Part shown: positions 1 to 8,120 of the stretch, piece after piece
How positions within the stretch are numbered: position 1 is the first letter of the stretch
How the letters are laid out: each line of letters starts with the position of its first letter
Source: a virus
Lineage: Duplodnaviria; Heunggongvirae; Uroviricota; Caudoviricetes
IMG/VR virus record: IMGVR_UViG_2681813321_000021
DNA length: 21,512 bases
Direction: 5' to 3' (one strand)
Position numbers and translations under genes: made by a program
Notes under the pieces: model-generated
The model's input: the letters and a program-made list of their open reading frames with translations, nothing else
Told to the model about the DNA's origin: nothing
Databases searched by the model: none

Positions 1-171
1 ACTGCAATGGCTTCAATCAGTCTGATTCAGCTGAAATTGCAGGCCGGACGTAAACTGACGCAGGCAGAAACAACCAGCCTTAACGCTGTGCTGGATTACA
101 TTGACGCGGTGACGGCAACAGATACCAGCACCGCGCCGGATGTCATCTGGCCTGAACTGCCGGAGGCGTAG
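1..171 (+). CDS. Tail fibre assembly protein (Tfa/gpG-like), 3' portion, partial at window edge
   Basis: Same frame and sequence as the end of ORF 2749-3297. C-terminus ...TATDTSTAPDVIWPELPEA is typical of Tfa proteins (Mu U / P2 G family); stop TAG at 169-171. Confidence 0.7.
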   Translation, partial: TAMASISLIQLKLQAGRKLTQAETTSLNAVLDYIDAVTATDTSTAPDVIWPELPEA

Positions 172-583
172 GCCATTCAATATCTGGCGCACTGGCGGTA
201 TCGACCAGCTCCAGTGCGTCCAGATAATCCAGCCACAAATTATATTGTGCCAGTTCCTCACCTTTCAGACGACCAATAGCTGCTTTACCAGGCCATTGCT
301 TACCGTTCATATAATCGTTGGCCTGATTAATCAGTTGCTGCTTTTCCAGTTCGGCTGCAGCAATCTGTTCCTCATGTGTTGGTGGTGGAATTTCAGACCA
401 TGCAGGAAAACCATTTTCTCCAGCGATACGGATTTTTCCTTTCGGCGGTAATCCGGAAAACTCAATATACACTTGCTCATCAACTTCAACAGCATCATCT
501 GGCCATGAGTCAGCTTGAGTGTAATCCTCTTTCATCTCCAGCGAATAGAAAGAGTTTGTAGTCGCGGAATATATATAATTCAT
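143..583 (-). CDS. Alternate tail fibre assembly protein (Tfa', inverted cassette partner)
   Basis: 146-aa ORF ending ...DTASAPDIEWPTPPAVQAR (Tfa C-terminal signature). Its 3' end overlaps the plus-strand tfa 3' end by 29 bp, the convergent layout seen for U/U' in Mu G-segment-type cassettes. Confidence 0.75.
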   Translation of the reverse strand: MNYIYSATTNSFYSLEMKEDYTQADSWPDDAVEVDEQVYIEFSGLPPKGKIRIAGENGFPAWSEIPPPTHEEQIAAAELEKQQLINQANDYMNGKQWPGKAAIGRLKGEELAQYNLWLDYLDALELVDTASAPDIEWPTPPAVQAR

Positions 584-604
584 TTCTCATTCCATATAGC
601 TAAA

Positions 605-1009
605 TTAACAGCCTAACGCTAAAAATGAAGCGCCGAGACCTGGATTACTGGCTCTAGATATAAATTTAACCGGGTCGGGACTAAAACCTGCACAGGCAAT
701 ATAACCAACAGCCCCGCTATCTGGTGTGTAGTCTTGTGAGACCAAAACACGCAGACATCTGTTTGGAAATGCAATCGGGAAATGGGTTACTACATCCTGT
801 GCAATGCCTGGAGCGCCGATTGAGCCCCACTGAAGAATAAAACCAGATGGTAATTTTTGATATCCAGTACCTGAAACAGAAAGCGTGAAGCTACCCATAT
901 CAGGTATCTGATTCGTCCCTGTCCCCACATTCCTTTTTGCCGCTTCTCCCAAACCAACGTTTTCGTTTTTATCCCTACCTATACCAACTATGTATTTTTC
1001 ACGAAACAA
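605..1009 (-). CDS. Alternate tail fibre C-terminal (variable) cassette, silent in this orientation; the listed Met is probably not a true start
   Basis: Sits between Tfa' and the invertase with a hix-like site inside its 5' end. Gly/Ser/Thr-rich sequence typical of fibre distal domains. Position matches S'v of Mu or the alternative cassette of P1/e14. Confidence 0.6.
944..969. promoter_or_regulatory. Candidate 26-bp recombination site for the invertase (hix/gix/cix-like)
   Basis: TTCTCCCAAACC-AA-CGTTTTCGTTTT. From memory, the left half-site and AA core closely resemble hixL (TTCTTGAAAACC AA ...) and cix; the right half is more degenerate. Lies 55 bp upstream of the invertase start, as expected. 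Confidence 0.45.
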
Positions 1010-1023
1010 AGAGGATGTTTTTT

Positions 1024-1623
1024 ATGCAAATTGGCTATATTCGTGTGTCAACAAATGACCAGAACACGGATTTACAACGCAATGCACTGAACTGCGCAGG
1101 ATGTGAACTGATTTTTGAAGATAAAATCAGCGGAACGAAATCAGCCAGACCGGGATTGAAAAAACTGCTCAGAACGCTATCAGAAGGAGATACGCTGGTT
1201 GTCTGGAAGCTGGACAGACTGGGCAGAAGTATGAAACACCTGATCACGCTTATTGAGGAATTGCGGGAAAAAGGTGTTAATTTCCGTAGTCTGACGGACA
1301 GCATTGACACATCAACACCCATGGGGCGTTTCTTTTTTCACGTCATGGGGGCTTTAGCCGAAATGGAACGTGAATTAATTGTAGAGCGTACACTGGCCGG
1401 GCTGGCAGCAGCACGCGCACAAGGACGCATTGGCGGACGTCGCCCGAAGTTGACAAAAGAACAACACGAGCAAATAGCGAGGCTGATTAAAAACGGTCAT
1501 GACAGGAAACAACTGGCGATCATTTACGACATCGGCATATCGACGATTTATCGTTATCACCCTGTAGGCGATATACAGGCTGAAGAAACAACCAGGCAGA
1601 CTCAGGAAAATGAAAACCGCTAA
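1024..1623 (+). CDS. pin: Serine DNA invertase, Pin/Hin/Gin/Cin family
   Basis: 199 aa: MQIGYIRVSTNDQNTDLQRNAL...VVWKLDRLGRSMKHLI...GRIGGRRPKLT, with catalytic Ser in the YIRVSTNDQ motif and a C-terminal HTH. GAGGA RBS upstream. The longer ORF from 937 is rejected. Confidence 0.92.
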   Translation: MQIGYIRVSTNDQNTDLQRNALNCAGCELIFEDKISGTKSARPGLKKLLRTLSEGDTLVVWKLDRLGRSMKHLITLIEELREKGVNFRSLTDSIDTSTPMGRFFFHVMGALAEMERELIVERTLAGLAAARAQGRIGGRRPKLTKEQHEQIARLIKNGHDRKQLAIIYDIGISTIYRYHPVGDIQAEETTRQTQENENR

Positions 1624-1642
1624 TCTGACCATTAGCGGTTTT
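1613..1642. terminator. Hairpin between convergent pin and gpU (AAAACCGCTAAT-loop-ATTAGCGGTTTT), probable bidirectional terminator
   Basis: 12-bp perfect inverted repeat overlapping the pin stop codon; A/T runs on both sides. Confidence 0.5.
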
Positions 1643-1649
1643 GCGTTAA

Positions 1650-2144
1650 TCAAAACAGCCCTTTAACGGAGCTGGCCGCGCTGTTAAGGGATGATGTGAC
1701 CTTATCTTTGAAGCCGGACAGCATATCACTGAACGATGAGGATTGCAGGCGCTCCCGCAAATCCTCATCACAGCGTTCAAGGGTCAGTGAAAATTCTATC
1801 TTTTTCGCCTTACCGTAGCGATCAAACTCGGAGCGGGTCGTATTCGTTTCAGTCAGTACATACATGCCGTAAATCTGCCCGACACCATCAATCAGAGGCC
1901 AGGGGCGTCCTGTATATGCCTGCGTGGTCAGCAACGAAAGCGACACTTCGCCACCTGTAATTTCAGGATAAAGCACACCAGAAAGAACGATGCGATCATC
2001 ACCTGCACCGATATACTGCCAGCTTGCTGAACGGTTAACGCGTTCATTTTTCACATGCCGCCAGCTTTTGTTTTGCTGTAACTGCTGATGCGGCAGCGTG
2101 CGCAGCTCAAAAACAAACATGCCGTAGATCATCATCATGGCCAT
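1650..2144 (-). CDS. P2 gpU-like tail protein
   Basis: 164 aa with the conserved block ...WRHVKNERVNRSASWQYIGAGDDRIVLSGVLYPEITGG..., matching the P2 gpU family as I recall it. Confidence 0.85.
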   Translation of the reverse strand: MAMMMIYGMFVFELRTLPHQQLQQNKSWRHVKNERVNRSASWQYIGAGDDRIVLSGVLYPEITGGEVSLSLLTTQAYTGRPWPLIDGVGQIYGMYVLTETNTTRSEFDRYGKAKKIEFSLTLERCDEDLRERLQSSSFSDMLSGFKDKVTSSLNSAASSVKGLF

Positions 2145-2150
2145 GACTCC

Positions 2151-2814
2151 TCAATCTTTATCGTAAAAACTGCCACGCCCGGCACGGGCGCGCCGTTCCA
2201 TTTCTGCCCTGACCATTTCACCGACCAGTTTCGCCAGTTCGCGGGGATTCTGTGTAACAACGTTATGCAGATGAACATGAATTTCACCGCCAAATCCGGA
2301 GGCAACAGGCTCCCGGTTACGGGAAGTTGCAGGAACTGATGCCACTGGCGATCGTATGGCCTCTGCCACCGGGCGGGAGCTGGCCGCAACAACAGGGACC
2401 AGCGCCGGAGGCAGCGGAGCCGGAACCACAGGTGTGATATTAATTGCGGGGGCAGGCTTACTGACCTGCGCAATCTTCCGCTCCTGCCACTCCCCACGAA
2501 CAGCAAGTGCGCGGGGCAGGTTCTTAAAGACAATATCGCCGGGGCCAATACGTTTTTTCGTCTCATCAACCAGCTTACCTGTGTTATCAGCAATTTTGCT
2601 GAGTCTGCGTAGCGTACCGGTATTGCTGTCTGTGAGCGGTTTGTTGTCTTTGGGTTTATCACCTCCGGTGCCATTGCCATTTTCCACAGGCTTCGGCGGA
2701 TTGATTTTCGCCAGGTCCCCCTGAAGCAAGGCAACCTTGTCCTGAAGAATGGCCGCACGCTGTGCGTCTTCGATTTTCTTGCGCGCCCTTTCCGCTTCAT
2801 CCGGAAGCACACCA
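2151..2814 (-). pseudogene. 5'-truncated copy of the tape measure gene (C-terminal ~221 codons), cut by the duplication junction
   Basis: Translation is identical to the C-terminus of the 947-aa ORF at 5277-8120. Identity stops at 2814; upstream of that on the minus strand is the reverse complement of tfa. Confidence 0.8.
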
Positions 2815-3297
2815 GGTGTCGGTATCCCTGCATATTCCTGTTTAGATGCCCCTGGCACATACAAAGCTGGTTATGCAATCTGCCGATCTGTAGATTTTAA
2901 CTCATGGGAATATGTGCCAGACCATCGCGGTGAAATCGTCTTTAGCACCGAAACAGGAGAATCAAAAGAAATCACAGCTCCGGGTGATTACCCTGATAAT
3001 ACAACCACTATCGCCCCGTTAACGCCATACGATAAATGGGATGGTGAGAAATGGGTGACGGATACCGAAGCACAGCATAGCGCCGCAGTAGATGCAGCAG
3101 AAGCACAGCGCCAGTCACTGATTGATACTGCAATGGCTTCAATCAGTCTGATTCAGCTGAAATTGCAGGCCGGACGTAAACTGACGCAGGCAGAAACAAC
3201 CAGCCTTAACGCTGTGCTGGATTACATTGACGCGGTGACGGCAACAGATACCAGCACCGCGCCGGATGTCATCTGGCCTGAACTGCCGGAGGCGTAG
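2815..3297 (+). CDS. Tail fibre assembly protein (Tfa), 5'-truncated at the duplication junction in this copy
   Basis: Open frame encodes ...YKAGYAICRSVDFNSWEYVPDHRGEIVF...DVIWPELPEA. There is no in-frame ATG between the junction (2815) and 3133; the listed Met at 2749 lies in reverse-complemented tape-measure sequence and so is chimeric. Confidence 0.6.
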   Translation, partial: GVGIPAYSCLDAPGTYKAGYAICRSVDFNSWEYVPDHRGEIVFSTETGESKEITAPGDYPDNTTTIAPLTPYDKWDGEKWVTDTEAQHSAAVDAAEAQRQSLIDTAMASISLIQLKLQAGRKLTQAETTSLNAVLDYIDAVTATDTSTAPDVIWPELPEA

Positions 3298-3709
3298 GCC
3301 ATTCAATATCTGGCGCACTGGCGGTATCGACCAGCTCCAGTGCGTCCAGATAATCCAGCCACAAATTATATTGTGCCAGTTCCTCACCTTTCAGACGACC
3401 AATAGCTGCTTTACCAGGCCATTGCTTACCGTTCATATAATCGTTGGCCTGATTAATCAGTTGCTGCTTTTCCAGTTCGGCTGCAGCAATCTGTTCCTCA
3501 TGTGTTGGTGGTGGAATTTCAGACCATGCAGGAAAACCATTTTCTCCAGCGATACGGATTTTTCCTTTCGGCGGTAATCCGGAAAACTCAATATACACTT
3601 GCTCATCAACTTCAACAGCATCATCTGGCCATGAGTCAGCTTGAGTGTAATCCTCTTTCATCTCCAGCGAATAGAAAGAGTTTGTAGTCGCGGAATATAT
3701 ATAATTCAT
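3269..3709 (-). CDS. Alternate tail fibre assembly protein (Tfa'), copy B
   Basis: Identical translation to 143-583. Confidence 0.75.
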   Translation of the reverse strand: MNYIYSATTNSFYSLEMKEDYTQADSWPDDAVEVDEQVYIEFSGLPPKGKIRIAGENGFPAWSEIPPPTHEEQIAAAELEKQQLINQANDYMNGKQWPGKAAIGRLKGEELAQYNLWLDYLDALELVDTASAPDIEWPTPPAVQAR

Positions 3710-3730
3710 TTCTCATTCCATATAGCTAAA

Positions 3731-4135
3731 TTAACAGCCTAACGCTAAAAATGAAGCGCCGAGACCTGGATTACTGGCTCTAGATATAAATTTAACCGGG
3801 TCGGGACTAAAACCTGCACAGGCAATATAACCAACAGCCCCGCTATCTGGTGTGTAGTCTTGTGAGACCAAAACACGCAGACATCTGTTTGGAAATGCAA
3901 TCGGGAAATGGGTTACTACATCCTGTGCAATGCCTGGAGCGCCGATTGAGCCCCACTGAAGAATAAAACCAGATGGTAATTTTTGATATCCAGTACCTGA
4001 AACAGAAAGCGTGAAGCTACCCATATCAGGTATCTGATTCGCCCCTGTCCCTACATTCCTTTTAGCCGCTTCTCCCAAACCAACGTTTTCGTTTTTATCC
4101 CTACCTATACCAACTATGTATTTTTCACGAAACAA
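3731..4135 (-). CDS. Alternate tail fibre C-terminal cassette, copy B
   Basis: As 605-1009, but with one amino-acid difference (Thr to Ala at residue 32) and two synonymous changes. Confidence 0.6.
4070..4095. promoter_or_regulatory. Candidate hix/gix-like recombination site, copy B
   Basis: Identical 26-mer to 944-969. Confidence 0.45.
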
Positions 4136-4149
4136 AGAGGATATTTTTT

Positions 4150-4749
4150 ATGCAAATTGGCTATATTCGTGTGTCAACAAATGACCAGAACACGGATTTA
4201 CAACGCAATGCACTGAACTGCGCAGGATGTGAACTGATTTTTGAAGATAAAATCAGCGGAACGAAATCAGCCAGACCGGGATTGAAAAAACTGCTCAGAA
4301 CGCTATCAGAAGGAGATACGCTGGTTGTCTGGAAGCTGGACAGACTGGGCAGAAGTATGAAACACCTGATCACGCTTATTGAGGAATTGCGGGAAAAAGG
4401 TGTTAATTTCCGTAGTCTGACGGACAGCATTGACACATCAACACCCATGGGGCGTTTCTTTTTTCACGTCATGGGGGCTTTAGCCGAAATGGAACGTGAA
4501 TTAATTGTAGAGCGTACACTGGCCGGGCTGGCAGCAGCACGCGCACAAGGACGCATTGGCGGACGTCGCCCGAAGTTGACAAAAGAACAACACGAGCAAA
4601 TAGCGAGGCTGATTAAAAACGGTCATGACAGGAAACAACTGGCGATCATTTACGACATCGGCATATCGACGATTTATCGTTATCACCCTGTAGGCGATAT
4701 ACAGGCTGAAGAAACAACCAGGCAGACTCAGGAAAATGAAAACCGCTAA
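4150..4749 (+). CDS. pin: Serine DNA invertase, Pin/Hin/Gin family, copy B
   Basis: Identical 199-aa translation to 1024-1623. Confidence 0.92.
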   Translation: MQIGYIRVSTNDQNTDLQRNALNCAGCELIFEDKISGTKSARPGLKKLLRTLSEGDTLVVWKLDRLGRSMKHLITLIEELREKGVNFRSLTDSIDTSTPMGRFFFHVMGALAEMERELIVERTLAGLAAARAQGRIGGRRPKLTKEQHEQIARLIKNGHDRKQLAIIYDIGISTIYRYHPVGDIQAEETTRQTQENENR

Positions 4750-4768
4750 TCTGACCATTAGCGGTTTT
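4739..4768. terminator. Hairpin between convergent pin and gpU, copy B
   Basis: Same inverted repeat as 1613-1642. Confidence 0.5.
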
Positions 4769-4775
4769 GCGTTAA

Positions 4776-5270
4776 TCAAAACAGCCCTTTAACGGAGCTG
4801 GCCGCGCTGTTAAGGGATGATGTGACCTTATCTTTGAAGCCGGACAGCATATCACTGAACGATGAGGATTGCAGGCGCTCCCGCAAATCCTCATCACAGC
4901 GTTCAAGGGTCAGTGAAAATTCTATCTTTTTCGCCTTACCGTAGCGATCAAACTCGGAGCGGGTCGTATTCGTTTCAGTCAGTACATACATGCCGTAAAT
5001 CTGCCCGACACCATCAATCAGAGGCCAGGGGCGTCCTGTATATGCCTGCGTGGTCAGCAACGAAAGCGACACTTCGCCACCTGTAATTTCAGGATAAAGC
5101 ACACCAGAAAGAACGATGCGATCATCACCTGCACCGATATACTGCCAGCTTGCTGAACGGTTAACGCGTTCATTTTTCACATGCCGCCAGCTTTTGTTTT
5201 GCTGTAACTGCTGATGCGGCAGCGTGCGCAGCTCAAAAACAAACATGCCGTAGATCATCATCATGGCCAT
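4776..5270 (-). CDS. P2 gpU-like tail protein, copy B
   Basis: Identical to 1650-2144. Confidence 0.85.
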   Translation of the reverse strand: MAMMMIYGMFVFELRTLPHQQLQQNKSWRHVKNERVNRSASWQYIGAGDDRIVLSGVLYPEITGGEVSLSLLTTQAYTGRPWPLIDGVGQIYGMYVLTETNTTRSEFDRYGKAKKIEFSLTLERCDEDLRERLQSSSFSDMLSGFKDKVTSSLNSAASSVKGLF

Positions 5271-5276
5271 GACTCC

Positions 5277-8120
5277 TCAATCTTTATCGTAAAAACTGCC
5301 ACGCCCGGCACGGGCGCGCCGTTCCATTTCTGCCCTGACCATTTCACCGACCAGTTTCGCCAGTTCGCGGGGATTCTGTGTAACAACGTTATGCAGATGA
5401 ACATGAATTTCACCGCCAAATCCGGAGGCAACAGGCTCCCGGTTACGGGAAGTTGCAGGAACTGATGCCACTGGCGATCGTATGGCCTCTGCCACCGGGC
5501 GGGAGCTGGCCGCAACAACAGGGACCAGCGCCGGAGGCAGCGGAGCCGGAACCACAGGTGTGATATTAATTGCGGGGGCAGGCTTACTGACCTGCGCAAT
5601 CTTCCGCTCCTGCCACTCCCCACGAACAGCAAGTGCGCGGGGCAGGTTCTTAAAGACAATATCGCCGGGGCCAATACGTTTTTTCGTCTCATCAACCAGC
5701 TTACCTGTGTTATCAGCAATTTTGCTGAGTCTGCGTAGCGTACCGGTATTGCTGTCTGTGAGCGGTTTGTTGTCTTTGGGTTTATCACCTCCGGTGCCAT
5801 TGCCATTTTCCACAGGCTTCGGCGGATTGATTTTCGCCAGGTCCCCCTGAAGCAAGGCAACCTTGTCCTGAAGAATGGCCGCACGCTGTGCGTCTTCGAT
5901 TTTCTTGCGCGCCCTTTCCGCTTCATCCGGAAGCACACCAAGCTTTTCAAGTATCCACGCCAGCGTATCCAGCAACATTTTTGCAGGCGTCAGAACAAGC
6001 TGTAACGCGCCACCAAGAACGTTGCCGAATACCTCGCCAGCACTGGTGCATTTATCCAGCGTTTCCTTGCTGGACTCCATCGGTGACAGCAGCGATTTAA
6101 ACCAGTTAAACACCTGGCTGATCCCGCTTCCGATTGCGTCAAAAACAGGGCCAAACCGTTCAAAGGTTTCGCGCAACGGGGCCAGTCGCTCCATAATCCC
6201 ACTGAACACCCCGGCATAAAACGCCTTGATGGGTTCCCAGTATTTCCAGATGAGAACCGCCGCAGCGACAAACGCTGCAGCAATCAACCCGACCGGACTG
6301 AACAGCGCCCCGATAGCGCCTCCCAGCAACGAGATGGAACCTGTTACCATTCCCCATAGTGCTGGCAGCACCCTGACGACATTCATTGATCCGGTCAGGA
6401 GAGAAAAACCAAGACGTAACGTGGCCAGTTTCCCGTGAAGCACACCAATAACCAGCGACAACGAGCCAACCGTTGCAGTCATTGCCAGCAGCGCACCGCC
6501 TGCTATCAGCAGCTGGCGCGTCAGTACCGGATGAGCCTGCGCCAGCGCCGTCACCTTTGAAACTACCCGCGTGAGCCACTGCGTGACAGAACGCAGCGGG
6601 CCGTCAATCAGATCTGCAATGCGGATGCGCAACCCTTCCCATGCACTGCCGAGTGATTTCAGATCGCCGTCAAGGTTGTTGGCCATAACCTTTGCCGTGC
6701 GTTCAGCCTCACCGCGCGCGCCTTCAAGTTCTTTTCTCAGTTTGGGTAAGGAGCCGTCACCTGCCGCATCAACGAGGGCCATAAATGATGTGAAAGCCTC
6801 TTCTCCGGCAATGTCCTTAAAGAACGATACCCGGTCAACTTCCCCGTATTTGCGGGTGGCTTTATAAAGGTCGGCCAGCACATCCTCCATCGGGCGCATT
6901 TTGCCGTTCGCGTCAGAGACTGCCACACCAAGCTCTTTCAGCGCCTCTGCTGCTGCCTTTGGCGGTGATGCCAGACGAGCCAGGCTGGCACGCATTGCCG
7001 TCCCGGCATCACTCCCTCTGATACCCATATTCGCCAGCACGCCCGCCATCGCTGCGGCCTGCTCCAGCGATATTCCCAGCTGACCCGCCACCGGACCTGC
7101 ATATTTCATGGTTTCGCCCAGTGCGCGAAGGTCAGTGTTGGTACGGGTAAATGCTGCGGTGAGCGTGTCGCCAACCCGGTCCATCTGGTCAGCAGAAAGG
7201 CCGAACTGCGTCAGGATATTTGAGCCAATATCCGCCGTCTCGCCGAGATCCATGCCGCCAGCCGTTGCCATGCTCAGCACGCCCGGAAGCGCAGCCTGAA
7301 TGGCCTGCGGAGTGAAGCCAGCCATTGCAAGAAATGCCTGCCCACTGGCGGCATCGCCTGCGGTGAACTGCGTTTCAGAGCCAAGTTTTAACGCCTGCTC
7401 ACGCAGCGCCTTAAACTGCGGGCTGTTCTGGTCGATTCGCGTCAGTGCCTGAACGCGGGACATCTCTTTCCCGAACCCGATCGCAGGCTGCAAAAAACGC
7501 CCGGCAGCATAGCCGCCCGCCGCTGCCGCACCAATTGCCAGTGCACCACCTGTTTTCAGTTTTCCCGCTGTTTCCTGCGCGCGCGAATACCGCTCACGCG
7601 CCCGCGTTACACGCGCAAGCGCCTGCCGTTCGCGTTCAAGCTGGTTGTTGTACTGCTCGGTGCGTCTGATGGCCTGCTGGATGGTGTTATCGCTGCCTGT
7701 CAGGGAAATGCCGTGGCGTTTCAGCTCTCCGCCAAGCTCCCGCATTTTCTGAATTTCCCGTGTGCGCGATTCATTCAGGCGTTCAAGCCGGGTGCTTAAT
7801 TGCTGCATCAGCTTTTGTTGTTTTTCGCTGAGCACTGTACCCGTGCGTTGTAACTGATTAAGGGCGTTAAGCTGGCGTCGTGCTTTCACGATGCCCGCAT
7901 CCGCTTTACTGACAGCGTCGCGGGCGCGCTCAAATGATCGCGCCTGACGCTCGAGATTTTTGATCGCCCCCTGCGTTCGCTGGATGGAGTCACCAAACTG
8001 CCCCATCAGGCGGCGGGCGTTTTCGGCAGGCCGGGTCAGCCTGTCAACGGCGCTGAAAGCGACCCGGATATCAAGAGTCTTCATTGTCTGCATTCCCGCT
8101 GCGAAGTGCCGCCCGCTCAC
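5277..8120 (-). CDS. Tail tape measure protein (P2 gpT-like); exact start uncertain
   Basis: 947 aa with a coiled-coil/Ala-rich N-terminal half, hydrophobic Gly-rich central segments and a Pro-rich C-terminus. Sits between gpE/E' and gpU as in P2. Confidence 0.88.
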   Translation of the reverse strand: MSGRHFAAGMQTMKTLDIRVAFSAVDRLTRPAENARRLMGQFGDSIQRTQGAIKNLERQARSFERARDAVSKADAGIVKARRQLNALNQLQRTGTVLSEKQQKLMQQLSTRLERLNESRTREIQKMRELGGELKRHGISLTGSDNTIQQAIRRTEQYNNQLERERQALARVTRARERYSRAQETAGKLKTGGALAIGAAAAGGYAAGRFLQPAIGFGKEMSRVQALTRIDQNSPQFKALREQALKLGSETQFTAGDAASGQAFLAMAGFTPQAIQAALPGVLSMATAGGMDLGETADIGSNILTQFGLSADQMDRVGDTLTAAFTRTNTDLRALGETMKYAGPVAGQLGISLEQAAAMAGVLANMGIRGSDAGTAMRASLARLASPPKAAAEALKELGVAVSDANGKMRPMEDVLADLYKATRKYGEVDRVSFFKDIAGEEAFTSFMALVDAAGDGSLPKLRKELEGARGEAERTAKVMANNLDGDLKSLGSAWEGLRIRIADLIDGPLRSVTQWLTRVVSKVTALAQAHPVLTRQLLIAGGALLAMTATVGSLSLVIGVLHGKLATLRLGFSLLTGSMNVVRVLPALWGMVTGSISLLGGAIGALFSPVGLIAAAFVAAAVLIWKYWEPIKAFYAGVFSGIMERLAPLRETFERFGPVFDAIGSGISQVFNWFKSLLSPMESSKETLDKCTSAGEVFGNVLGGALQLVLTPAKMLLDTLAWILEKLGVLPDEAERARKKIEDAQRAAILQDKVALLQGDLAKINPPKPVENGNGTGGDKPKDNKPLTDSNTGTLRRLSKIADNTGKLVDETKKRIGPGDIVFKNLPRALAVRGEWQERKIAQVSKPAPAINITPVVPAPLPPALVPVVAASSRPVAEAIRSPVASVPATSRNREPVASGFGGEIHVHLHNVVTQNPRELAKLVGEMVRAEMERRARAGRGSFYDKD

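Follow-up and report, generated by a model that had tools for sequence, protein, structure and literature searches.

Does the tail-gene region at one end of this prophage contig really occur twice in the bacterial DNA, or did an assembler write out a single copy twice? The stretch analysed here, which we call the window, is 21,512 bp long and is the whole of draft contig CYBF01000060.1 (assembly GCA_001285025.1), position 1 being the contig end. The contig comes from an Escherichia coli isolate and includes, next to fabB/mnmC, the right half of a prophage of the P2 family (P88/Xuanwuvirus-like). For positions 1–5940, the original prediction was of a recent 3,126-bp tandem duplication with chimeric ORFs at its joint, made with the reservation that it could be an assembly artefact.

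Extent and gene content of the repeat

Pfam matches, together with synteny with P88, 500465-2 and annotated prophages, identified a P2-family (Peduoviridae) tail module in the window: its genes for GpU, the tape measure, GpE/E', tube, sheath and GpD are arranged as in P2/P88. Scanning the window against Rfam gave zero families, and there is no N anywhere in it. Frameshifts that could hint at poor assembly proved to be real alleles that are shared. The draft assembly is fragmented, with at least 60 contigs as judged from the contig number, and a literature search on the assembly and run accessions found nothing.

We compared the two putative copies base by base and found that positions 1–2814 match 3127–5940 at an offset of 3126 with four mismatches in 2814, and that beyond 2815 the identity at this offset drops to random (about 25%). 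The same period of 3126 was given by a repeat tool, whose reference copy is capped at 300 nt. The number of bp truly present twice is 2,814; because 312 bp of the left copy are missing at the contig end, the unit of 3,126 bp is deduced from the period and not seen twice, and as the window is the entire contig the left copy cannot be completed. The copies are head to tail without a spacer, the period being equal to the unit length and the single 312 bp between them belonging to the unit. It can be seen that the unit starts at tfa codon 41, takes in tfa', a silent fibre cassette, a pin-proximal crossover site, pin and gpU, and finishes with the final 221 codons of the tape-measure gene. The predicted period and the ends of the unit, inside tfa and inside the tape-measure gene, were therefore right, and every gene call that had been made was sustained, the ORFs being present with the Pfam identities claimed for them. 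The coordinates of all features are listed in Table 1.

Both predicted pin genes are complete and intact, and the encoded protein has the architecture of an invertase, with a Resolvase catalytic domain, a C-terminal HTH and the N-terminus MQIGYIRVSTNDQ with its serine. The two predicted gpU genes are likewise present. The claim of two alternate fibre cassettes was correct in that two cassettes are present, but they are the same silent cassette twice, with one amino-acid difference, and not different alternatives. As for the crossover sites, the window has the pin-proximal one alone, in two directly oriented copies; the inverted partner site was located in gene H of a single-copy relative (L003), 634 bp to the left of the breakpoint, and is absent from contig CYBF01000060.1. 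From its sequence, the hairpin where pin and gpU converge resembles a bidirectional terminator.

Table 1. Features of the repeat region, in coordinates of the window.
Feature	Position	Strand	Basis or remark
Left (contig-terminal) copy, incomplete	1–2814		Matches 3127–5940; contig begins here
tfa 3' end, left copy, cut by contig end	1–171	+	Gene call
tfa' (alternate tail fibre assembly), left copy	143–583	−	Caudo_TAP 4.7e-37
Silent alternate fibre C-terminal cassette (gp53-like C), left copy	605–1009	−	Pfam; protein is WP_172738697.1, PEC240-type lineage
Patch with the sole four inter-copy differences, spanning crossover site	916–1017		916, 926, 938 and 1017 versus 4042, 4052, 4064 and 4143
Pin-proximal crossover site TTCTCCCAAACCAACGTTTTCGTTTT, left copy	944–969	+	Motif scan: 2 matches in window, 0 expected
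pin (serine DNA invertase, 199 aa), left copy	1024–1623	+	Resolvase PF00239 1.5e-51; HTH_7 PF02796 1.4e-12
Hairpin AAAACCGCTAAT...ATTAGCGGTTTT between pin and gpU, left copy	1613–1642		Sequence
gpU (162 aa), left copy	1650–2138	−	Pfam; ORF 1650–2144
Chimeric ORF: 15–17 codons antisense to tfa, then tape-measure C-terminal 221 residues	2151–2864	−	ORF list, sequence comparison
Chimeric tfa ORF: 22 codons antisense to tape-measure gene, in frame with tfa residues 41–200	2749–3297	+	Caudo_TAP
Novel joint AGCACACCA/GGTGTCGGTAT	2805–2824		Blunt; without microhomology to either native context
Unit part present once in contig (tfa codons 41–144)	2815–3126	+	Offset comparison, relatives
Right copy, continuous with full tape-measure gene (resident prophage sequence)	3127–5940		Identity to relatives and sister contig
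tfa', right copy	3269–3709	−	Pfam
Silent fibre cassette, right copy, resident allele WP_261289269.1	3731–4135	−	One residue differs from left: A instead of T
Pin-proximal crossover site, right copy, direct orientation to left one	4070–4095	+	Motif scan
pin, right copy, protein identical to left	4150–4749	+	Sequence comparison, Pfam
pin/gpU intergenic hairpin, right copy	4739–4768		Sequence
gpU, right copy	4776–5264	−	Pfam; ORF 4776–5270
Complete tape-measure gene (935 aa)	5277–8084	−	Pfam; repeat ends 664 nt into its 3' part

The novel joint and the four-mismatch patch

The unit end is linked to the unit start by a single novel joint, which lies between 2814 and 2815, as predicted. Here a 3' fragment of the tape-measure gene, ending at the 5940-equivalent, meets tfa codon 41 (tfa nt 121) in the sequence ...GGAAGCACACCA/GGTGTCGGTATCC, with resident-type sequence on both sides. 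The bases spanning it are CACACCA/GGTGTCGG, and a small palindrome, ACACC-A-GGTGT, is present at this point. Both of the chimeric ORFs that had been predicted exist. For the minus-strand ORF the GenBank call starts at 2858 and gives a 235-aa product (CTU02598.1), and zero Pfam matches were obtained; within the plus-strand ORF the Prodigal call covers only 2914–3297 (127 aa). We consider that the two junction ORFs are probably silent.

The joint was absent from 5,426 complete E. coli genomes, phage records, GTDB representatives, IMG/VR and JGI metagenomes. A search for the joint ORF among 153 billion called genes found it on no other public assembly, although in this region the Logan contigs are so fragmented that the joint would not appear in them as a called gene. 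Exact-sequence lookup of the chimeric ORFs found the longest forms unrecorded and the 235-aa form on contig CYBF01000060.1 only. Two candidates for further occurrences were dismissed: 233-aa ‘tail protein’ fragments of the same protein cluster, which could have pointed to a truncation that recurs, simply use an internal Met of the native sequence as their start, and a 1.9-kb contig from another assembly with a 127-aa tfa call (L018) has tfa cut at about the 2873-equivalent, followed by unrelated sequence.

We also considered whether Pin itself had made the joint. By eye, the tape-measure side (CACACC-AA-GCTTTTC) is loosely site-like, but the tfa side is unlike a site and the central dinucleotides differ, and so this origin was rejected on a manual comparison with the site consensus. 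A HindIII cleavage position (AAGCTT) at 5940/5941 was taken as coincidence, as the tfa side has no such site.

The four differences between the copies are not random drift; they are clustered round the invertase crossover site and match the allele of another lineage: a 102-bp patch of the left, contig-terminal copy is the allele of a PEC240-type prophage lineage. The original argument that the copies are nearly identical and hence recent is reasonable, but incomplete, since the four differences form a patch from another lineage. Because two distinguishable alleles are present, the sequenced DNA contains at least two copies of this 102-bp stretch. In a search for natural prophages equal to the left copy, the highest identity was 98.6%, and the cassette ORF of the left copy is on no other contig of the same assembly. 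Internal gene conversion from the H-proximal site region was rejected as the source of the four SNPs, since homology does not extend past the core of the site and one of the SNPs lies outside the invertible segment.

Duplicated DNA or a second pass of the assembler

Ten single-copy loci encode a tape-measure protein identical to that of the window, and all lack the joint; four of them (L003, L004, L007 and L010) are 100% identical to 2815–8054. Contig CYAU01000064.1, from a sister isolate that has a single prophage with the resident allele, begins at the 3132-equivalent and shows 0 differences over 7 kb. The window is equal to this sister contig plus 3,131 nt, approximately one extra turn of the 3,126-nt unit, and its first base is 5 nt from the sister contig's end point. 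Sister assemblies with neighbouring accession numbers, which are probably from one project with this isolate, have the identical prophage sequence without the joint ORF, which shows that this sequence does not systematically give rise to the joint. The D protein was tried as a route to a 265-kb sister contig and set aside, being too widespread, and that contig has a different tape-measure lineage.

Our best reading, to which sequence comparison lets us give about an even chance, is an isolate-specific, recent and unstable tandem duplication formed by illegitimate recombination. Culture DNA would then contain the 3,126-bp prophage segment repeated head to tail, following RecA-independent illegitimate joining between sister chromosomes (unequal exchange), a route that we infer because the joint lacks microhomology. 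All of the native genes would be intact, with H–tfa on the left (off the contig) and U-T-E-FII-FI on the right, and the gains would be duplicates of pin, gpU and the silent cassette with its crossover site, together with the two junction ORFs, which have no obvious promoter. The assembler would have written the duplication by going round a cycle once more, and have stopped at the tfa graph boundary where the sister contig stops. In favour of a duplication, the sequence is of resident type on both sides of the joint, and repeat and joint are exact. The one-turn relation to the sister contig, the lack of the joint in the sister assemblies and the two alleles of the patch count on the same side. 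Furthermore, since a blunt joint shares no bases and cannot be created by k-mer overlap, a de Bruijn assembler would need reads containing it, and the joint was thus probably within reads; this read support, the copy number and the mechanism are the parts of the duplication reading that we infer.

Several observations argue against it. The repeat is at the contig end of a fragmented draft assembly, and if the data are short reads, as the fragmentation suggests, read evidence cannot resolve a near-identical repeat of 2.8 kb. With a start only 5 nt from the sister end, the layout may be a graph walk and not a measured structure. The joint is in no other public assembly searched, the repeat ends on a site that differs between lineages, as expected for a graph branch point, and the foreign patch on the contig-terminal copy would also fit reads of a second related prophage threaded into a second pass.

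The reservation in the original prediction is accordingly upheld: the contig, being the sister contig with one unit added, looks like a traversed graph cycle. We rate an assembly artefact only a little below a real duplication, somewhat short of an even chance. There would be one genomic copy, and the assembler, scaffolding or gap-closing would have traversed T-U-pin-tfa' twice to give a false contig-end duplication, the second pass taking an alternative bubble arm that another related prophage or pin locus of this genome supplied. Besides the terminal position in a window that is the whole contig, the single unit of extra length and the near coincidence with the sister stop, this explanation accommodates the fact that other draft contigs are broken in the same region (2858-, 3142-, 3281- and 4007-equivalent), the contig start itself being the 3127-equivalent. 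The repeat ends exactly at 5940, where lineages have either A or G; this is where PEC240 and P88 first differ, following identity over at least 160 nt. Position 3127 also varies among tfa paralogs of the e14 type. The PEC240-type patch, the presence of up to eight related loci per E. coli genome, the restriction of the joint to one assembly and an odd G7AG12 tract on the contig point the same way. However, the joint is blunt and without N, so that a k-mer graph cannot have invented it and a scaffolder would need T'–tfa read pairs, and in none of the tfa lineages examined does homology begin or end at 2815. The joint is missing from sister assemblies of this prophage, the left cassette ORF is on no other contig of the assembly, no natural lineage matches the left copy exactly, and the suspect frameshifts are real shared alleles.

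A real joint might alternatively be confined to a minority of molecules that the assembler unrolled: a subpopulation in which the segment is duplicated or amplified further, or a 3,126-bp circle cut out of the prophage. Tandem duplications with 2.8 kb of homology are quickly lost through RecA-dependent recombination, and heterogeneity is for this reason expected; the contig geometry shows a cycle and no copy number, and sister isolates lack the joint. Nevertheless we regard this as unlikely, because assemblers normally discard low-coverage k-mers, the two breakpoints have no recombination sites or repeats able to form a circle, and a non-replicating circle would not persist.

The remnant of a tandem double lysogen, in which a deletion of approximately 30 kb joined the left tape-measure gene to the right tfa of two near-identical P2-like prophages, would leave a final structure indistinguishable from a 3.1-kb tandem duplication, and would explain the natural allele of another lineage in one copy without gene conversion, the four-SNP patch being a difference between the two phages. 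We think it highly improbable: it needs two rare events against one, two phages should differ at more than four clustered sites in 2.8 kb (the lineages differ by 1.4–3% over this region), immunity normally blocks a second lysogeny by the same phage, and only one prophage, of the resident allele, is present in the sister isolate.

Meaning and comparison with known systems

Whether it is a real duplication or an assembler loop, the event is unremarkable. If real, it would be another transient tandem duplication, in a prophage that is common, and of very little biological weight. The practical message is one of caution, as gene counts for the assembly are inflated (two pin, two gpU, the extra ‘modular tail protein’ CTU02598.1 and a truncated tfa) by a structure unverifiable from the record, and sister assemblies can expose one extra graph-cycle turn in a contig. 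We regard it as very unlikely that the duplication is both real and stable enough to matter, giving one H-proximal and two direct pin-proximal sites with two pin genes. In that event Pin could invert either the usual 1.9 kb or a nested segment of approximately 5 kb that includes pin, gpU and the junction ORFs, and could in principle excise the extra unit through the two direct sites, making this a natural three-site test of partner choice and deletion avoidance by a Hin-family invertase.

Phages of the P88/Xuanwuvirus and Gemsvirus type (Escherichia phage P88, 500465-2 and 503458, and E. coli prophages) have the same gene order (V W J I H tfa → ← tfa' ← fibre cassette, pin → ← U ← T ← E' ← E ← FII ← FI, D → ogr), with 90–97% identity over T-U-pin, and their GpU, PhageMin_Tail, GpE, sheath, tube and GPD Pfam families were all found here. 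They differ in having the T-U-pin-cassette segment once, and none has the T'/'tfa joint.

The Hin/Gin/Cin/Pin switches (Mu G, P1 C and e14 P segments) are alike in their Resolvase plus HTH_7 invertase with an N-terminal RVS motif, and in a promoter-less alternate fibre C-terminus and convergent tfa/tfa' between the sites. The 26-bp site adjoining pin is one that we take to resemble the hix/gix consensus, and the inverted partner in gene H of relatives shares the 14-nt half TTCTCCCAAACCAA. No inversion was seen, the invertible region having the same orientation in all assemblies examined. Here, in contrast to these switches, the pin-proximal site, pin and the silent cassette occur twice in direct orientation and the H-proximal site is off the contig.

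Spontaneous tandem duplications in enterobacteria form by RecA-independent illegitimate recombination and are lost by RecA-dependent recombination. They resemble the structure described here in their head-to-tail near-identical copies, a single novel joint, no gene destroyed and relatives that lack the duplication; the differences are the zero microhomology, where a short one is usual, and the four-SNP patch of a foreign allele in one copy. False duplications at contig or scaffold ends share with it the terminal position, an extra length of one cycle, a recurrent break region and a joint in one assembly, but they are usually found at shared k-mers or N gaps, whereas the joint here is blunt and has no N.

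The repeat, its joint and the genes involved

When the window was compared against its own sequence shifted by 3,126 nt, the first 2,814 bp recurred with only four mismatches, identity was at the random level from 2815 onward, and a repeat finder returned the same period; the near-identical tandem repeat of the original prediction therefore holds in the sequence. The 3,126-bp unit is deduced from this period, 2,814 bp being present in two copies and the intervening 312 bp in one. The positions of these and other features are listed in the table.

The predicted joint between a tape-measure fragment and a 5'-truncated tfa could be read directly at 2814/2815 as ...GGAAGCACACCA/GGTGTCGGTATCC, the slash marking the breakpoint. 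The native left context of 2815 in L003, L004, L007 and L010 (single-copy relative loci with an identical tape-measure protein) is ...ATCTTGCTGTG/GGTGTCGG, and the native tape-measure context is ...GCACACCA/AGCTTT. No bases are common to the two breakpoints, which makes the joint blunt. It also forms a 5-bp palindrome (ACACC-A-GGTGT), and the last repeated base, 5940 (equivalent to 2814), is the cleavage position of a HindIII site.

Features of the window and their Pfam matches
Feature	Position	Match or description
Left copy	1-2814	contig-terminal
Differences between copies	916, 926, 938, 1017	left-copy positions
Intervening sequence	2815-3126	single copy
Right copy	3127-5940	resident prophage sequence
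26-bp pin-side sequence	944-969, 4070-4095	one per copy
Hairpin	4739-4768	between gpU and pin
HindIII site	5940-5945	AAGCTT
tfa, tfa'		Caudo_TAP
Small minus-strand ORF		gp53-like fibre C-terminus
pin		Resolvase + HTH_7
gpU		Phage_P2_GpU
935-aa protein		tape-measure protein
RES segment	12325-13822	about 1.5 kb
Inverted repeats	12340-12417, 13734-13811	78 nt, 96% complementary
RES ORFs	12661-12909, 12915-13493	82 and 192 aa
Shortened C run	12883	C5 to C4
G tract	13654-13673	G7-A-G12
yfcJ ORFs	17096-17677, 16501-17148	193 and 208/215 aa
yfcJ deletion	about 17136-17138	GCGC to GC
Short tandem repeat	17941-17959	units of about 9 nt, CTACTCCGA-like

The identities proposed for tfa and tfa' (the alternate tail fibre assembly gene), the fibre, pin, gpU and tape-measure genes were each confirmed by Pfam. 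In annotated relatives the normal layout is V W J I H tfa -> <- tfa' <- cassette, pin -> <- U <- T <- E' <- E <- FII <- FI, D -> ogr, where the cassette is a silent alternate fibre C-terminus. The prophage belongs to the P2 family and is of the P88/Xuanwuvirus type; it has inserted close to fabB, mnmC and yfcJ. Window position 2815 is tfa nucleotide 121, so that the tfa copy at the joint is 40 codons short. What is left of it happens to be in the reading frame of an ATG that stands 22 codons into tape-measure antisense, and on the opposite strand the tape-measure gene contributes its last 221 codons, which continue into tfa antisense. Chimeric junction ORFs are thus present, as had been proposed, one on each strand.

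Between the cassette and pin each copy carries the 26-bp sequence TTCTCCCAAACCAACGTTTTCGTTTT (two matches, none expected by chance), which we take to resemble the hix/gix consensus. In L003, gene H contains an inverted partner that has the half-site TTCTCCCAAACCAA in common with it and is placed 634 bp leftward of the breakpoint; the unit therefore begins within the invertible segment and includes the pin-proximal site only. The H-proximal site is absent from the window contig.

Copy number in relatives and the origin of the repeat

The window is the entire contig CYBF01000060.1 of GCA_001285025.1, which encodes exactly its tape-measure protein and has the same length, 21,512 bp, so that position 1 is a contig end and not an arbitrary cut. 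The right end falls just where the closest complete genome has a copy of IS621, which is typical of a draft assembly breaking at repeats. In related records an 8,200-nt query is spanned by only about 5,386 bp, the same as 8,200 minus 2,814, and these records are therefore single-copy. Likewise, the identical tape-measure protein was found in 10 other loci, all single-copy, four of which (L003, L004, L007 and L010) are 100% identical to window 2815-8054. A 40-mer across the joint was looked for in complete E. coli genomes (5,426, of which not one spans it), phage records, GTDB species representatives, IMG/VR and JGI metagenomes and was found in none of these sets, and among 153 billion called genes the joint-spanning ORF, on record as CTU02598.1, 'tail protein (modular protein)', was found on the window contig only.

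Our leading reading, at about even odds, is that the DNA sequenced did contain a real tandem duplication; the isolate's reads probably include the joint, and we read the contig as a graph cycle traversed once. The original prediction had allowed for an assembly artefact, and we take a false duplication at the contig end as a serious, if doubtful, rival, with three observations that point to the assembly graph and four against. Sister isolates with neighbouring accessions have contigs of 18,381 and 18,324 bp that share with the window the yfcJ 2-bp deletion and the RES frameshift. One sister contig, CYAU01000064.1, begins at window-equivalent 3132 and shows no differences over the next 7 kb. 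It can be seen that the window is this contig plus 3,131 nt, running from 3127 to 5940, across the joint and from 2815 to 3131; this is one turn of the 3,126-bp cycle, the two contigs stopping 5 nt apart, which points to the assembly graph. Contigs of unrelated assemblies also stop in the same region (2858-, 3142-, 3281- and 4007-equivalent). Thirdly, the repeat ends exactly at 5940, where the resident lineage has A and the comparison genomes PEC240, CH4804 and P88 have G; at least 160 nt of unbroken identity precede this difference and dense divergence comes after it, and a second prophage of the PEC240/CH4804/P88 type would branch from the resident one there. However, polymorphic sites are numerous in this stretch of the gene and 5940 is simply one of them, so that its coincidence with the repeat end is only moderately unlikely. 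Moreover, a blunt joint, in a contig that contains no N, is not producible by k-mer overlap, in none of the tfa lineages examined does homology begin or end at 2815, and the joint was not produced in sister assemblies of the identical prophage. The joint palindrome, the HindIII position and the 5940 polymorphism have no mechanism linking them and may be coincidences. A minority variant and a collapsed double lysogen jointly take the small probability that is left.

The four differences between the copies are confined to 102 bp and lie on both sides of the crossover site: the pin leader has one of them, and the other three fall on the opposite side, just within the invertible segment. All nine close relatives covering this patch have the right-copy allele; the left copy has the PEC240 allele, from a lineage further removed, and encodes a cassette protein identical to WP_172738697.1 of that lineage. 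At 3938 and 4596, the nearest flanking sites with a PEC240 difference, the left copy has the resident base, and the patch is therefore between 102 and about 650 bp long. We conclude that it is not random drift: to take the near-identity as a sign of a recent event is reasonable, but the differences form a cluster with the allele of another lineage. There are two possible sources: either another P2-like or pin locus exchanged sequence with this one by gene conversion or recombination, or the assembly walk took up reads of such a locus on its second pass. The left-copy cassette ORF was not on any other contig of GCA_001285025.1, and no exact match to the left copy was found in any complete genome.

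Other features of the contig

L003, L004 and other relatives are 100% identical to the window across tfa-T, but numerous SNPs separate them from it beginning within gene D at about 10750 (region about 9614-10750 onward). CH4804 shows the opposite pattern: its fibre genes are different, and from D towards the host flank it is 99% identical. The prophage is a mosaic in which a recombination boundary separates the sheath gene from D.

A segment with a RES-domain gene and a small upstream ORF, bounded by inverted repeats at which Logan contigs break, sits between hok and a zinc-ribbon gene when compared with L003-type prophage ends, about 11 bp of L003 sequence aligning on either side; it looks like a small transposase-less mobile cassette with a toxin module. 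Within it the shortened C run splits the 275-aa RES-domain protein of CH4804 in two. The 192-aa ORF recurs in several metagenome contigs, in Logan ERR134550 and in the sister assemblies, which makes it a genuine allele rather than an error of assembly. The G tract, G6 in CH4804 (the closest complete genome) and also different in sister contig CYAN01000063.1, represents either hypervariable poly-G or an artefact of sequencing or assembly.

The deletion that splits yfcJ (an MFS transporter gene) is common to GCA_001277575.1, GCA_001285125.1 and Logan ERR134550 and ERR134558 (both from sister isolates), SRR31898999 and DRR481228, and is thus a lineage-specific pseudogene. Between yfcJ and fabB the copy number of the short tandem repeat differs among CH4804, L003 and the window. 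In L018 (GCA_001266025.1, JHSP01000186.1), a 1.9-kb contig of an E. coli draft, a PEC240-type tfa is cut at window-equivalent ~2873 and abuts unrelated sequence (...GGTTCTTGCTGCACGCTTACA/TGCAATCTGCC), possibly through an insertion element or other rearrangement; disruption or contig breaks seem to affect the 5' part of tfa readily.

Consequences and comparison with known systems

If the duplication is real, its structure is what unequal illegitimate joining between sister chromosomes of tape-measure nt 2144 (from the gene start) to tfa nt 121 would produce. No native gene would be broken: H-tfa would lie to the left, and the FI-FII-E-T-U operon to the right would stop at the hairpin between gpU and pin. 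We found no promoter-like site upstream of either junction ORF and no obvious source of transcription; the cassette and tfa', upstream of the tape-measure chimera, are promoter-less until inverted, and the pin terminator hairpin stands 1.1 kb upstream of the truncated tfa. A real duplication, with 2.8 kb of direct homology, should not be stable in a recA+ host. It would add about 9% to the length of the prophage, and as related phage genomes span 31.2-37.6 kb, packaging of the prophage might remain possible.

If real, this is an ordinary tandem duplication, and if not, an ordinary false duplication at a contig end; nothing in it is new in kind. The components are the standard set of a P2-family tail module, and the invertase system is a standard example of a Hin/Gin/Pin-type fibre switch.
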